64,000 nt of DNA from Candidatus Fervidifonticultor primus (lineage in GTDB: Bacteria; Sysuimicrobiota; Sysuimicrobiia; Sysuimicrobiales; Humicultoraceae). Where the stretch lies: assembly GCA_031459855.1 (NCBI GenBank), contig JAVKHP010000001.1, positions 2,702,309 to 2,766,308 of the forward strand, in the 5' to 3' direction. The notes under the pieces were generated by a model. That model saw only the letters and a list, made by a program, of their open reading frames with translations, did no database searches and had not been told where the DNA came from. Position 1 is the stretch's first letter. The number at the start of each line of letters is the position of its first letter. A program made the translations under genes and the position numbers. Below are positions 43,122 to 50,132 of this stretch, in pieces.

Positions 43122-43532
43122 TCAGACCGTCACCCCGCGCGGCCTGACGTTCTCCTGCACCCAGCGCACGATCTCGGCCAGGGAAGTGCCCGGGAGGAAG
43201 ACCTTGCGGATCCCGGCGGCCTCCAGCCCGGGGATGTCGTCCTCGGGGATGATGCCGCCGCCGAACACCACGATGTCGTCGGCGCCGGCCTCGCGCAGCA
43301 GCTGGACAACCCGCGGGAAGAGCACGTTGTGGGCGCCGGAGAGGATCGACAGGCCCACGGCGTCCACGTCCTCCTGGATCGCCGCGCTGGCGATCATCTC
43401 CGGCGTCTGGTGCAGCCCGGTGTAGATCACCTCGACGCCCGCGTCCCGCAGCGCCCGCGCGACCACCTTGATGCCGCGGTCGTGCCCGTCGAGCCCGGGT
43501 TTGGCCAGCAGGATGCGCAACGGCCGTGCCAT
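43122..43532 (-). CDS. B12-binding small subunit of a split acyl-CoA mutase (IcmB-like, 136 aa).
   Basis: [39 protein letters not shown]... carries the DxHxxG cobalamin His-ligand motif (DGHDRG). Stand-alone B12 domain as in isobutyryl-CoA mutase IcmB and archaeal-type split MCM. Confidence 0.85.
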
Positions 43533-43541
43533 CACCGAGTC

Positions 43542-43570
43542 ATGATACGCACGGGTGCCGGCGGGGTCAA
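43542..43570 (-). promoter_or_regulatory. Candidate internal promoter TTGACC-N17-TATCAT placed 9 nt upstream of the B12-subunit ATG (leaderless start implied).
   Basis: Minus strand reads cgTTTGACCccgccggcacccgtgcgTATCATgactcggtgATG. Confidence 0.4.
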
Positions 43571-43608
43571 ACGGGCGCCCTCGGGCCTGCGGCGACCCCG
43601 GGGATCCC

Positions 43609-45189
43609 TCAGATGACGACCGGCTCGCGGTACTCGCCGTAGACCTCGCGCAGCACGCCGCAGATCTCCCCGAGCGTCGCGTAGGCGCGCACGCACTCGA
43701 GGATGTGCTCCATGGTGTTGTCGTTCCCCGCGGCCGCCCGGCGGAGCGCCTCCAGCCGCCGCGCCACCTGGGTGTTGTCGCGCTCGGCGCGCACACGCCG
43801 GGTCCGCTCGATCTGCCGGCGTTCCACCTCCGGGGGAATGCGCAGGATGGGGATGGGACGCTCCTCGGGCACGACGAACTCGTTGACCCCGACGATGATC
43901 CGTTCCTTGCGCTCCACCTGCTGCTGGAAGCGGAACGCCGCGTCGGCGATCTCCCGCTGCGGGTAGCCGGCCTCCACCGCCGCCACCATCCCGCCCATGG
44001 CGTCGATGCGCTCGATGTACGCCCAGGCGGCCTCTTCCAGCTGGTTGGTGAGCGCCTCGACGAAGTAGGCCCCGCCCAGGGGATCGACCGTGCTGGCCAC
44101 GCCGGTCTCGTAGGCGATGATCTGCTGGGTGCGCAGCGCCACCATCACCGCCTCCTCGGTGGGCAGCGCGTACGTCTCGTCCATGGAGTTGGTGTGCAGC
44201 GACTGGGTCCCGCCCAACACCGCGGCCAGGGCCTGCAGCGCCACCCGCGCCACGTTGTTGAGGGGCTGCTGGGCCGTGAGCGAGACGCCGGCGGTCTGGG
44301 CGTGGGTGCGCAACCACCACGACCGCGGGTTTTGGGCCCCGAAGCGCTCCCGCATGATCCTGGCCCACATGCGCCGCGCCGCACGGAACTTGGCGATCTC
44401 CTCGAAGAAGTCGCTGTGGACGTCGAAGAAGAAGGACAGCCGCGGCGCGAAGGCGTCGACGTCCAGCCCCGCGGCCAGGCCCAGCTTCACGTACTCAATG
44501 CCGTCGGCCAGCGTGAAGGCCAGCTCCTGCACGGCCGTGGCGCCGGCCTCGCGGATGTGGTAGCCGGAGACGCTCACCACGTTCCACTGGGGCAGGTGCC
44601 GCGTGCCGAAGACCAGCATGTCCGCCACCAGGCGCAGGGCCGGCCGGGGCGGGACGATCCACTCCTTCTGGGCGATGTACTCCTTGAGGATGTCGGTCTG
44701 GGTGGTGCCCCGCAGGCGGTCGGGCGGCACACCCTGACGCTCGGCCACGGCGACGTACATGGCGAGCAGCACGTTGGCCGGCGCGTTGATGGTCATGGAG
44801 GTGCTGACCCGGTCGAGCGGGATGCCCTGGAACAGGATCTCCATGTCGGCCAGCGAGTCGACGGCCACGCCCTCGCGGCCCACCTCGCCCTGGGCCCGCG
44901 GATGGTCGGAGTCGTACCCCATCAGCGTGGGCATGTCGAAGGCCACCGACAGCCCGGTCTGCCCCTGGGCCAGCAGGTAGTGGAAGCGCCGGTTGGTGTC
45001 CTCGGCGGTGCCGAACCCGGCGAACTGGCGCATCGTCCACAGCTTCCCGCGGTACATGGTGGCGTGGATGCCGCGGGTGAACGGATACGCTCCCGGACGG
45101 CCCAGGTCGACCTCCGGCGACCACCCCGCCAGGTCCTCGGGACCGTAGACCTCCTTCACCGGAATGCCCGACAGCGTCTCGTAGCGCAT
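43609..45189 (-). CDS. Acyl-CoA mutase large (substrate-binding TIM-barrel) subunit without a B12 domain. Specificity residues match isobutyryl-CoA mutase (IcmA-like) rather than methylmalonyl-CoA mutase.
   Basis: [17 protein letters not shown]...[29 protein letters not shown]...[17 protein letters not shown]. Phe at the MutB Tyr89 position (RQFAGF versus RQYAGF) and Gln at the MutB Arg207 position (YIAQKEW versus FMVRNTY). GGAGG RBS before the ATG at 45189. The 1187-aa ORF-track frame is a read-through artefact. Confidence 0.85.
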
Positions 45190-48165: not shown

Positions 48166-48174
48166 GCGTCCCTC

Positions 48175-48198
48175 CCTCAGAGCAACCCTCAGAGCAAC
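48175..48198. repeat. Perfect 12-bp tandem duplication (CCTCAGAGCAAC x2) spanning the etfB stop codon and abutting the etfA RBS.
   Basis: 48175-48186 and 48187-48198 are identical. The second copy contains the etfB TGA (48189-48191). Confidence 0.5.
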
Positions 48199-48974
48199 TT
48201 GAGGTCGCGCAGGCGCAGCGCCAGGGCCTCGGCCTGCTGCGCGGGCTCCCCCTCGAGGAACTCGCAGCGGGTCGTCCGCTCCGGCACCCGCACGTCGAGC
48301 ACGTCGACGCCGGCGTCGCCCACCGCGACGCCCAGGGCATCCACCGGCCAGGTCTGCACGGGCTTGCGCTTGGCCCCCACGATGTCCTTCACCTTGGGCA
48401 GGCGCGGTCGGTTCGCTTCGTCGCTCGTGACCGAGAGCACGGCGGGCAGGCGGGCCTCGACCACGTGATATCCCTCGTCGGCCTGTCGGTGCGCCACGAC
48501 GCGCCCGTCCTCGACCGTCACGCGGGCGACGAAGGTCACGCAGGCGGCGCCGAGCTCCTCGGCCAGGAGCGGTGGCACCGCGCGCTCCACCCAGTCCGCC
48601 GACTCGCAGCCGGTGAGCACGAGGTCGACGGCACCGAGCCGCCGGATCGCTGCGGCGAGCACTGGTGTCTTGGCAGCGCCCAGCAGGTCGGGCCCGCGCG
48701 GGTCGTCCACCACCACGGCGTCGTCGGCACCCATGGCCAGCGCCAGGCGGATCTGGTCGCCCACGGTCGCCTGGGGCGCGAGCGCCAGCGCCGTCACCCG
48801 GGCGCCCGTGCGGTCCTTGACCTGCAGGGCGACCTCCAGGGCGTTCTCGTCGTAGGTCGACAGGACCAGGGGCCGCCCCTCGCGGACCTGGCGCCGGGTC
48901 TGGGGATCGATGGCGAAGTCCCGGAGCGGGAGCTCCGGGTCGACGACCTGTTTGAGGCACACCACGATGTGCAT
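48189..48974 (-). CDS. etfB: Electron transfer flavoprotein beta subunit.
   Basis: MHIVVCLKQVVDPELPLRDF...VDLVLTGCESAD. Confidence 0.9.
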   Translation of the reverse strand: MHIVVCLKQVVDPELPLRDFAIDPQTRRQVREGRPLVLSTYDENALEVALQVKDRTGARVTALALAPQATVGDQIRLALAMGADDAVVVDDPRGPDLLGAAKTPVLAAAIRRLGAVDLVLTGCESADWVERAVPPLLAEELGAACVTFVARVTVEDGRVVAHRQADEGYHVVEARLPAVLSVTSDEANRPRLPKVKDIVGAKRKPVQTWPVDALGVAVGDAGVDVLDVRVPERTTRCEFLEGEPAQQAEALALRLRDLKLL

Positions 48975-48992
48975 AGGTCCTCCGCCAGGACG

Positions 48993-50132
48993 TCAGGCCA
49001 GCAGGTGGCGTGCGATCACCACCCGCTGGATCTCCGACGTGCCCTCGTAGATCTCGGTGATCTTGGCGTCGCGAAAGTAGCGCTCCACGGGGTAGTCCTC
49101 CACGTACCCGTAGCCCCCGAAGAGCTGCACGGCCCGATGCGCGCACCACATGGCGACCTCCGAGGCGAACAGCTTGGCCATGGCGGCCTCACGGGCGGCC
49201 GGCTGGCCTGCGGTGCGCAGCGCCGCCGCGCGCAGCGTCAGCAGGCGCGCGGCCTCCAGGCGCGTGGCCATGTCGGCCAGGGCGAACCGTACCGCCTGGA
49301 ACTCGGCGATGGGCCGGCCGAACTGCTGGCGCTGCTGCGCGTGGGCCGCGGCCTCCTCCAGGCAGGCGCGCGCGATCCCCAGCGCCTGGGCCGCGATGCC
49401 GATGCGCCCGCCTTCCAGCGTCCACAGCGCGATCCTCCCGCCTTGCCCGCGCTCGCCCAGCAGGGCGTCGGCCGGCACCCGGCAGTCCTCGAAGATCAGC
49501 TCGGCGGTGGACGAGCAGCGGATCCCCAGTTTCTTCTCGACCTTGCCGACGCGCACACCCGGGGTGGACTTCTCGACGATGAACGCCGAGATCCCGCGCG
49601 CGCCCGGAACGGGCTCGGTGCGGGCGTAGACCAGGCAGACGTCGGCTTCCACCCCGTTGGTCACGAAGAGCTTCGTGCCGTCCAGCACCCACGTCCCGCC
49701 GTCCAGCCGCGCGGTCGTGCGCAGCGACATCGCATCGGATCCGGCCCCGGGCTCGGTCAGGCAGTAGCACCCCAGCCGCCGTCCGGTGGCCAGGTCCGGG
49801 AGGTAGCGGCGGCGCTGCTCCTCCGTGCCCCAGCGCAGGATCGGTTCACAGACCAGCGACGTGTTGACGGTCAGGATCGTCTGGAACCCGGCGCACGCGC
49901 GGGCCAGCTCCTCGTGGGCCAGCACGTACGCGATGTGATCCAGCCCCGGCCCGCCGTAGGCCTCGGGGACGGTGAGGCCCAGCAGCCCCAACTCGGCTGC
50001 GCGCGCCACCACCTCGGCGGGGTAGCGCGCCTCGCGATCGAGGGCCGCCGCGATCGGGAGGAGTTCGCGCGCGGCGAACTCGCGGACCGTGGCTTGCAGC
50101 AGGCGATGCTCGTCGGTGAGCGTGATCGACAT
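48993..50132 (-). CDS. Acyl-CoA dehydrogenase (short/branched-chain, butyryl-CoA-dehydrogenase-like).
   Basis: CLTEPGAGSDA...QLFGGYGYVEDYPVERYFRDAKITEIYEGTSEIQR are ACAD hallmarks. 18 nt upstream of etfB. Confidence 0.9.
   Translation of the reverse strand: MSITLTDEHRLLQATVREFAARELLPIAAALDREARYPAEVVARAAELGLLGLTVPEAYGGPGLDHIAYVLAHEELARACAGFQTILTVNTSLVCEPILRWGTEEQRRRYLPDLATGRRLGCYCLTEPGAGSDAMSLRTTARLDGGTWVLDGTKLFVTNGVEADVCLVYARTEPVPGARGISAFIVEKSTPGVRVGKVEKKLGIRCSSTAELIFEDCRVPADALLGERGQGGRIALWTLEGGRIGIAAQALGIARACLEEAAAHAQQRQQFGRPIAEFQAVRFALADMATRLEAARLLTLRAAALRTAGQPAAREAAMAKLFASEVAMWCAHRAVQLFGGYGYVEDYPVERYFRDAKITEIYEGTSEIQRVVIARHLLA

Follow-up and report, generated by a model that had tools for sequence, protein, structure and literature searches.

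Six co-directional genes were found on the minus strand at positions 43122-50132 of the stretch of Candidatus Fervidifonticultor primus DNA analysed here (contig JAVKHP010000001.1; the whole stretch, 64 kb long, is called the window below): acd, for a putative short-chain (butyryl-CoA type) acyl-CoA dehydrogenase (ACAD; 48993-50132, 379 aa); etfB (48189-48974, 261 aa) and etfA (47185-48165, 326 aa), for the two subunits of an electron-transfer flavoprotein (ETF); an etfD-like gene, for a predicted EtfD-type membrane ETF:menaquinone oxidoreductase (45189-47180, 663 aa); and icmA-like and icmB-like genes (icmA and icmB below), for the large TIM-barrel subunit (43609-45189, 526 aa) and the small B12-binding subunit (43122-43532, 136 aa) of an acyl-CoA mutase with the specificity residues of isobutyryl-CoA mutase (ICM). 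Gene identities were assigned with Pfam and NCBIfam profiles. The window has a G+C content of about 73% throughout, and gene models were taken from a caller based on G+C at third codon positions (GC3); naive stop-to-stop calling of open reading frames (ORFs) was abandoned, as at 73% G+C it merged genes and listed many antisense ORFs. The six genes and their common direction, with the coordinates of the whole string and of acd and the lengths of the two mutase subunits, had been described in an earlier note made from the sequence alone, and profile searches and gene calls agreed with that description throughout.

Successive genes, from acd to icmB, were separated by 18, 23, 4, -1 and 76 nt, and the etfD stop codon overlapped the icmA ATG by 1 nt (TGATG), an arrangement of translational coupling. 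We infer that the six-gene string is co-transcribed as an operon. The earlier description of an operon ending in the mutase held for the string, but not for its 3' end, which was not established at icmB: trmI, encoding TrmI (42202-43107), follows on the same strand after 14 nt, no terminator-like site was found in the icmB-trmI interval (the two terminator-like matches in the region lie inside genes and their number is at chance level), and the 76-nt gap between icmA and icmB contains a sigma-70-like promoter match in a motif scan (TTGACC-17-TATCAT, 43542-43570, minus strand). Two such sites were found in the 11-kb region vs. 0.2 expected from shuffles. The TATCAT (-10) of the gap site was conserved in the close relatives L001 and L087, and TTGAC was also present upstream in L001; this site may provide icmB and trmI with a promoter inside the string.

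The large mutase subunit matched the Pfam MM_CoA_mutase domain (PF01642) with 773 bits over residues 5-518 and TIGR00641 with 801.8 bits, and no B12-binding domain was detected in this ORF by Pfam or NCBIfam. That domain is encoded separately by the small subunit (Pfam B12-binding, PF02310; TIGR00640, 167.8 bits vs. a cutoff of 57.45), in which the DxHxxG motif reads DGHDRG (residues 15-20; His17 at 43482-43484). The profiles thus bear out the split architecture proposed earlier, of a 526-aa barrel without a B12 domain and a 136-aa DGHDRG partner. Against the equivalog model for methylmalonyl-CoA mutase (MCM; NF006944) the large subunit scored 665.8 bits, under the cutoff of 876, and against that for IcmF (NF045497) 356.7 bits, far under the cutoff of 1500. 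Its best match among solved structures was HcmA, the large subunit of 2-hydroxyisobutyryl-CoA mutase (HCM) (4r3u; 590 bits, residues 3-524), followed by human, mycobacterial and Propionibacterium MCM (approximately 490-510 bits) and IcmF (4xc6; 291 bits).

That two sites set substrate specificity in this mutase family is cited in PMC7238569. The active-site alignments to the solved structures were ungapped and of high confidence, with a constant offset of +34 to native HcmA numbering, so that each position could be mapped individually. Phe56 (RQFAGF; codon 45022-45024, minus strand) corresponds to Ile90 of HcmA (RQIAGF) and Tyr89 of MCM (RQYAGF); Ala83 (SVAFD; 44941-44943, minus strand) to Asp117 of HcmA (STDFD), MCM having SVAFD as well; and Gln174 (YIAQKEW; 44668-44670, minus strand) to Gln208 of HcmA (YMAQKEY) and Arg207 of MCM (FMVRNTY). 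The catalytic pair Tyr210-His211 (SGYH) and the other conserved residues of the barrel were intact. The motifs RQFAGF and YIAQKEW had therefore been read correctly by eye, and the Phe/Gln pair on which the ICM assignment was first based was recovered, with neither the Tyr/Arg of MCM nor the Ile/Asp of HCM at the aligned positions. The corresponding specificity residues of Streptomyces cinnamonensis IcmA are Phe80 and Gln198.

Phe/Ala/Gln was present at the three sites in all 120 of the closest database homologues (74-97% identity), which were mostly from Armatimonadota metagenome-assembled genomes (MAGs) and mostly named "methylmalonyl-CoA mutase family protein". The window mutase was placed, by neighbour joining of 111 family representatives, within a pure Phe/Ala/Gln clade, nested in a larger group without Tyr/Ala/Arg, and the Tyr/Ala/Arg sequences stood apart. 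Overall similarity was tried as a classifier and dropped: the best match in the PDB was HcmA, and Tyr/Ala/Arg loci were 59-64% identical to the window mutase, like many Phe/Ala/Gln loci. Signature residues were preferred for classification because overall identity does not separate these two classes. By its split architecture, its signature residues and its position in a clade with other Phe/Ala/Gln sequences, the mutase is assigned, as far as sequence features go, to the split ICM family; on the sequence evidence it is not an MCM, an HCM or an IcmF. It is predicted to interconvert isobutyryl-CoA and n-butyryl-CoA with adenosylcobalamin (AdoCbl).

The family as a whole is more diverse. Among 150 representatives of 50%-identity clusters, approximately 69 were Tyr/Ala/Arg, 15-20 Phe/Ala/Gln, and two Ile/Asp/Gln. 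Roughly one third of these representatives (P0121-P0270) had three-site combinations that match no characterised enzyme (for example Val/Val/Val, Leu/Val/Gly, Ile/Ile/Tyr), and many substrate specificities of the acyl-CoA mutase family appear, from these residues, to be unexplored.

The product of acd contained the three ACAD domains of Pfam (Acyl-CoA_dh_N, _M and _1), in agreement with the first identification of this gene, and was closest to short-chain acyl-CoA dehydrogenase (SCAD) of rat and human (427 and 426 bits) and to butyryl-CoA dehydrogenase (Bcd) of Clostridioides difficile (418 bits). Scores against branched-chain relatives were lower: 333 bits for short/branched-chain ACAD (SBCAD), 313 and 277 for isovaleryl-CoA dehydrogenase and 302 for isobutyryl-CoA dehydrogenase (ACAD8). 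The catalytic Glu is residue 363, in the C-terminal motif YEGTSE (362-367). The enzyme is thus SCAD/Bcd-like by similarity, with a predicted preference for butyryl-CoA.

EtfB (Pfam ETF) and EtfA (Pfam ETF and ETF_alpha) gave lower scores with canonical ETFs than with those of the Car, Bcd and Geobacter types. EtfB gave its best PDB matches with CarD (123 bits) and the ETF of Geobacter (5ow0; 103 bits), vs. 68 and 59 bits for the canonical Paracoccus and human proteins, and could be aligned along its entire length with this Geobacter protein, which is not clostridial. EtfA was nearest to C. difficile EtfA (232 bits vs. 153 for Paracoccus). No usable motif definitions separating bifurcating from canonical ETF were found in PMC6085437.

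The fourth gene encodes a protein with two CCG domains and a Fer4 dicluster domain (Pfam), which matched EtfD of Mycobacterium smegmatis (9ojn_A) with 406 bits, over both the membrane and the soluble parts. Hydropathy indicated an N-terminal membrane domain of four clear hydrophobic helices and a weaker N-terminal one. The cofactor ligands of M. smegmatis EtfD are named in the description of its cryo-EM structure, 9ojn (PMC13083937), and all of those for haem, [4Fe-4S], linear [3Fe-4S] and non-cubane clusters were conserved. The b-haem ligands His71 and His226 aligned with His78 and His241 in the M. smegmatis protein; the two CxxCxxCxxxC motifs (C275/278/281/285 and C336/339/342/346) with Cys301-311 and 412-422; the CCG ligands C421, C456-Thr457 and C493-P-H495-C496 with Cys503, 538(-Thr539) and 581/His583/584 (linear [3Fe-4S] and part of the non-cubane cluster); and C545, C581-C582 and C619/C622 with 637, 672/673 and 709/712 (the remainder). 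With this score and complete ligand set, the membrane-anchored HdrD/GlpC-type oxidoreductase recognised earlier can be placed in the EtfD family as a true homologue, and it is predicted to oxidise ETF and reduce menaquinone.

Upstream of the string, a gene on the same strand encodes a 284-aa 3-hydroxybutyryl-CoA dehydrogenase (Hbd; 51153-52007, minus strand; Pfam 3HCDH_N/3HCDH; NF005875, 389.6 bits vs. a cutoff of 319), a probable pathway partner of the operon. In the window it is separated from acd by a divergent ORF of 269 aa (50271-51080, plus strand) with coding-like GC3 and no Pfam match.

In close relatives the order acd-etfB-etfA-etfD-icmA-icmB-trmI was kept at mutase identities of 92% (L001 and L002), 86% (L086), 81% (L087) and 76% (L005). 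The hbd gene lay upstream of acd in all relatives examined, and in L087 it was directly contiguous and co-directional, forming a seven-gene string. The content of the slot between hbd and acd varied: an unannotated ORF in the window, L001 and L086 (283-289 aa in the latter two); nothing in L087; in L003, L005 and L088, two thiolase-like genes and two of the DUF35 type; and, in L004 and L006 (78% mutase identity), a divergent operon for the methylcrotonyl-CoA carboxylase subunits, an enoyl-CoA hydratase and HMG-CoA lyase.

The etfD gene was absent from four sister lineages, L003, L004, L006 and L088 (74-78% mutase identity). When their ETF regions (L003:8228-9997, L004:8198-9989, and those of L006 and L088) were compared with etfBA (47185-48974) and etfD (45189-47180) of the window, EtfB and EtfA were only 34-44% identical to those of the window, but the ACAD was 68-70% identical; in the relatives with etfD, EtfB and EtfA were 63-92% identical. 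The ETF of the sisters lacking etfD was canonical, like that of Paracoccus and human (EtfB scoring 147 bits against the Paracoccus protein), and around residues 122-135 their EtfB read GKLSTDDNAS (L003) or GRLATDDNAA (L004), vs. GCESADWVER in the window and its close relatives. The place between acd and icmA is thus held by either of two unrelated ETF types although the ACAD is kept, and etfBA and etfD look like one exchangeable cassette. In L088 a tandem array of GGTCCC(C/T)T-like repeats filled the interval between the genes of the two mutase subunits (L088:9684-9855).

More distant relatives were surveyed in one scan of species-representative genomes, which gave 80 loci spread over many phyla of bacteria and archaea (59-85% identity); with the first five loci the total was 85, comprising 67 Phe/Ala/Gln, 17 Tyr/Ala/Arg and one truncated. 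Genes within 7 kb were called and clustered, and cluster representatives were annotated. After the seven close relatives had been set aside, 78 loci remained, 61 not of the MCM type (60 Phe/Ala/Gln and the truncated one, counted together as Phe/Ala/Gln below) and 17 Tyr/Ala/Arg. The B12 small subunit was a neighbour in 33/61 vs. 11/17 loci, MeaB in 14/61 vs. 7/17 and the adenosyltransferase CobA in 6/61 vs. 1/17. Genes of beta-oxidation and electron transfer were found beside Phe/Ala/Gln mutases: ACAD (11/61 vs. 1/17), enoyl-CoA hydratase (ECH; 10/61 vs. 0/17), EtfA and EtfB (8 and 7 of 61 vs. 0 and 0 of 17), thiolase (8/61, plus 6 of a second thiolase type, vs. 0/17), Hbd (6/61 vs. 0/17), canonical ETF:quinone oxidoreductase (ETF-QO; 5/61 vs. 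0/17) and acyl-CoA ligase (5/61 vs. 0/17). The opposite was seen for a glyoxalase-fold epimerase (1/61 vs. 10/17), carboxyltransferase (6/61 vs. 8/17) and biotin carrier (2/61 vs. 6/17). Taken together, any beta-oxidation or ETF gene was present in 19/61 Phe/Ala/Gln loci and 1/17 Tyr/Ala/Arg loci (p = 0.056), and any of the three propionate-type genes in 6/61 and 11/17 (p = 1e-5). Judged by these neighbourhoods, beta-oxidation and ETF genes tend to accompany Phe/Ala/Gln mutases, and epimerase and carboxylase genes accompany Tyr/Ala/Arg mutases.

Loci in which ACAD and ETF genes accompany a Phe/Ala/Gln mutase, in varying order, were seen repeatedly, among them loci of Rokubacteria, Actinomycetota and archaea. 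The order was IcmA-IcmB-ECH-EtfB-EtfA-ETF-QO in L031; thiolase, further genes, then ACAD-IcmA-x-IcmB-EtfB-EtfA-ETF-QO in L068; and thiolase-Hbd-ECH-ACAD-ACAD-CobA-IcmA-IcmB in the bacterial L037, which, like the archaeal L040 and L070, combined thiolase, Hbd, crotonase, ACAD, CobA, IcmA, IcmB and MeaB. These gene orders show that the pairing of an ICM-type mutase with butyryl-CoA oxidation and an ETF:quinone outlet arose repeatedly.

The reading we favour, with a probability of about 70%, is that the locus encodes an AdoCbl-dependent two-subunit ICM of the IcmA/IcmB type, co-transcribed with a SCAD-type ACAD, an ETF and an EtfD-type oxidoreductase. Isobutyryl-CoA, presumably derived from valine or isobutyrate, would be converted by IcmAB into n-butyryl-CoA, and this by the ACAD into crotonyl-CoA; the two electrons would pass from the FAD of ETF to menaquinone, the predicted acceptor, by way of the Fe-S chain and then the b haem in EtfD; and two acetyl-CoA would be formed with the upstream Hbd, a crotonase and a thiolase, the last two being encoded outside the window. 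A MeaB-type chaperone and an adenosyltransferase would be supplied from elsewhere in the genome. A route of this kind, with ICM acting ahead of beta-oxidation and an Fe-S reductase linked to ETF, has been proposed for isobutyrate in Syntrophothermus lipocalidus (PMC5017805). The electron-transfer-coupled butyryl-/isobutyryl-CoA module put forward in the earlier note is thus supported by the mutase residues, the SCAD-like ACAD, the EtfD ligands and the neighbourhoods across phyla, the direction of flux, the source of the substrate and the substrate range being its more conditional parts.

Several observations weigh against this reading. Menaquinone has a potential of approximately -74 mV and butyryl-CoA oxidation one of approximately -10 mV, which is unfavourable under standard conditions; the direction of flux would therefore depend on respiration. 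In sequence the ETF is less close to canonical ETF than to clades with bifurcating members. Crotonase, thiolase, MeaB, adenosyltransferase and acyl-CoA ligase genes were absent from the 64-kb window, leaving the pathway locally incomplete. The whole neighbourhood, housekeeping genes included, is syntenic in close relatives, and conservation there says little alone. Finally, the enrichment of beta-oxidation genes in the distant survey was borderline taken alone, and 42/61 Phe/Ala/Gln loci showed none of these genes within 7 kb.

The alternative that survives best, although we consider it unlikely, is that the same proteins work in the opposite direction, crotonyl-CoA being reduced through ACAD and ETF with electrons from menaquinol or NADH, and the resulting butyryl-CoA being isomerised to isobutyryl-CoA for iso-branched fatty acids, valine or isobutyrate. 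ICM catalyses a reversible reaction and in Streptomyces furnishes building blocks (PMC2847961), and it has been put forward to account for isobutyrate formation by clostridia (PMC7764203, PMC10832561). From established redox potentials, menaquinol-driven reduction of crotonyl-CoA would be thermodynamically downhill, the ETF subunits score best against ETFs associated with Bcd and Car, and a fatty-acid synthesis (fab) cluster with FabH lies 16 kb away. That cluster is unlinked to the operon, however, EtfB departs from Bcd-type ETFs in its full-length alignment with the Geobacter protein, and the neighbours found across phyla (thiolase, Hbd, crotonase, acyl-CoA ligase, ETF-QO) are catabolic, which favours oxidation of isobutyryl-CoA by way of butyryl-CoA.

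A different substrate was given a lower probability still. The mutase could act mainly on isovaleryl-CoA and pivalyl-CoA, like pivalyl-CoA mutase (PCM), or be a broad mutase of short branched chains, in leucine or pivalate metabolism: IcmF catalyses both reactions (PMC10481361), and the divergent operon next to acd in L004 and L006 carries leucine-catabolic genes. The slot occupied by those genes is variable among relatives, though, and the ACAD is SCAD-like, with its catalytic Glu in the C-terminal YEGTSE and not in the arrangement of isovaleryl-CoA dehydrogenase. Kitanishi et al. reportedly found in 2015 that changing Phe598 of IcmF to Ala shifts the enzyme towards PCM activity, and a dedicated PCM is reported to be without ICM activity; at the position of IcmF Phe598 and MCM Tyr89 the window mutase has Phe, which, if an enlarged pocket lacking this Phe is the signature of PCM, argues against such an enzyme.

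We regard it as equally improbable that the adjacency is merely inherited gene order and that the ICM does not work with the ACAD, ETF and EtfD. Synteny in relatives at 74-92% identity extends over the whole region, with the housekeeping genes for PNP, PyNP, TrmI and thiamine metabolism, and a promoter-like site lies between icmA and icmB; on the other side stand the TGATG overlap of etfD and icmA, the presence of ACAD and ETF beside Phe/Ala/Gln mutases in varied orders in several phyla, and the change of ETF type between sister lineages in which ACAD and icmA still flank the ETF genes. All three argue for functional coupling.

Much less credible is that the mutase is of the HCM/RCM type, acting on 2-hydroxyisobutyryl-CoA, and cooperates with the nearby Hbd. 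HcmA gave the best structural match and hbd is conserved just upstream, but Ile90 and Asp117 of HcmA are replaced by Phe and Ala, and the Ile/Asp/Gln class exists among the family representatives as something distinct from the clade of the window mutase. An ordinary split MCM, the reading suggested by the public names and by matches to the Pfam and TIGR domain models, can practically be discarded, as the earlier note had also concluded: the carboxylate-binding Tyr and Arg are absent, the score lies under the equivalog cutoff, and the epimerase and carboxyltransferase neighbours typical of Tyr/Ala/Arg loci are missing.

Nearly all other genes of the window were housekeeping genes. The earlier observation that no meaB-type G-protein chaperone is adjacent could be widened, since none was found anywhere in the 64 kb by a scan for P-loop and Walker-B motifs, by tblastn with six MeaB sequences or by Pfam on nearly all called genes. 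ETF-QO, epimerase and a second mutase were likewise not found in the window, nor were tRNA genes or, with Rfam at the gathering threshold, a cobalamin riboswitch; the only riboswitch was of the thiamine pyrophosphate (TPP) type (RF00059; 55.6 bits, barely over the gathering score; 37124-37256, minus strand), upstream of a gene for a substrate-binding protein and a thiamine-related run (AIRS-domain protein, phosphomethylpyrimidine kinase).

Four other groups of genes, all on the minus strand, were recorded. A RecJ-like protein (9007-12426) is unusually long at 1139 aa, and in it a HIRAN domain comes after the DHH, DHHA1 and RecJ OB domains. PaaA/PaaC-family and PaaD-like genes, of the phenylacetyl-CoA oxygenase-type di-iron kind (18916-21585), adjoin an FAD-dependent oxidoreductase (17511-18905) and are unrelated to the mutase operon. 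The fab cluster already mentioned encodes FabF, acyl carrier protein (ACP), FabG and FabH (22924-27156), and a class IV (branched-chain-type) aminotransferase is encoded 7 kb upstream of the operon (57409-58296) and is also unlinked to it. Either the fab cluster or the aminotransferase might be connected with how isobutyryl-CoA arises or is used.

The assignment has consequences for annotation. The public name "methylmalonyl-CoA mutase family protein", carried by the window mutase and hundreds of relatives, implies propionate metabolism, whereas the signature and neighbourhoods point to the isomerisation that links isobutyryl-CoA with butyryl-CoA. Metabolic reconstructions of these MAGs would change in the fate of valine, the reason for requiring B12 and the point at which electrons enter the quinone pool. 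ICM, ACAD, ETF and EtfD are contained in a compact six-gene set that can be expressed and tested together, and equivalent clusters with either EtfD or canonical ETF-QO would offer a clean case of non-orthologous replacement. A wider claim is possible but rather doubtful: that ICM plus short-chain beta-oxidation, turning valine into two acetyl-CoA, is the main route of valine or isobutyrate breakdown in this lineage of Armatimonadota and, in parallel, in several further uncultured lineages of bacteria and archaea, replacing the textbook methacrylyl-CoA/propionyl-CoA route, with a dedicated ETF/EtfD cassette translationally coupled to a mutase that has no neighbouring MeaB.

Split ICM, EtfD and isobutyrate degradation through ICM and beta-oxidation have already been described, and all parts of the locus belong to known families; a literature search combining icmA/icmB with ACAD found no work linking them. 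The fusion of ICM genes, acd, etfBA and etfD into one operon and the swap of the ETF/EtfD cassette are organisational variations, not new biology. The nearest known systems are IcmA/IcmB of S. cinnamonensis and the cluster Slip_0757-0760 of S. lipocalidus, with which the window mutase shares a barrel without a B12 domain, a separate DxHxxG subunit of approximately 136 aa and Phe/Gln at the two sites (likeness to S. cinnamonensis IcmA being judged by architecture and signature, not by direct sequence comparison). They also share the proposed role of linking isobutyryl-CoA to butyryl-CoA (PMC5017805, PMC2847961). S. lipocalidus has ETF-linked Fe-S reductases in addition to its split ICM cluster (PMC5017805), and that cluster contains MeaB and an adenosyltransferase, whereas the window locus has neither nearby; unlike both known systems, the window has its mutase genes in one putative operon with ACAD, EtfBA and EtfD.

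HcmA/HcmB of Aquincola tertiaricarbonis (4r3u) has the same split architecture and Gln at the site equivalent to Arg207, but Ile90 and Asp117 where the window mutase has Phe56 and Ala83. IcmF (4xc6) shares the reaction class, the Phe/Gln logic and partial sequence similarity, but has its B12 domain, MeaB-like G domain and barrel fused, whereas the window ORFs are separate and include no G domain. The membrane protein resembles mycobacterial EtfD (Rv0338c; 9ojn) and the DUF224/EMO Fe-S oxidoreductase of syntrophs in its bis-His b-haem site, two cubane motifs, two CCG domains and adjacency to etfBA; it has 663 aa vs. 1042 aa, with no counterpart of the disordered C-terminal stretch, approximately 265 aa long, found in the M. 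smegmatis protein, and it lies in what appears to be a substrate-specific operon, the mycobacterial enzyme being a general outlet of beta-oxidation. Five loci from Actinomycetota MAGs (L028, L031, L043, L057 and L068) likewise have a Phe/Ala/Gln mutase and B12 subunit beside EtfB-EtfA and a quinone reductase, often with ACAD, crotonase, Hbd and thiolase, but in another gene order, with an ETF 33-52% identical and with the flavoprotein ETF-QO (PF21162) instead of the haem/Fe-S protein, so that EtfD in the window would be the non-orthologous equivalent that fills the place of ETF-QO in those loci.

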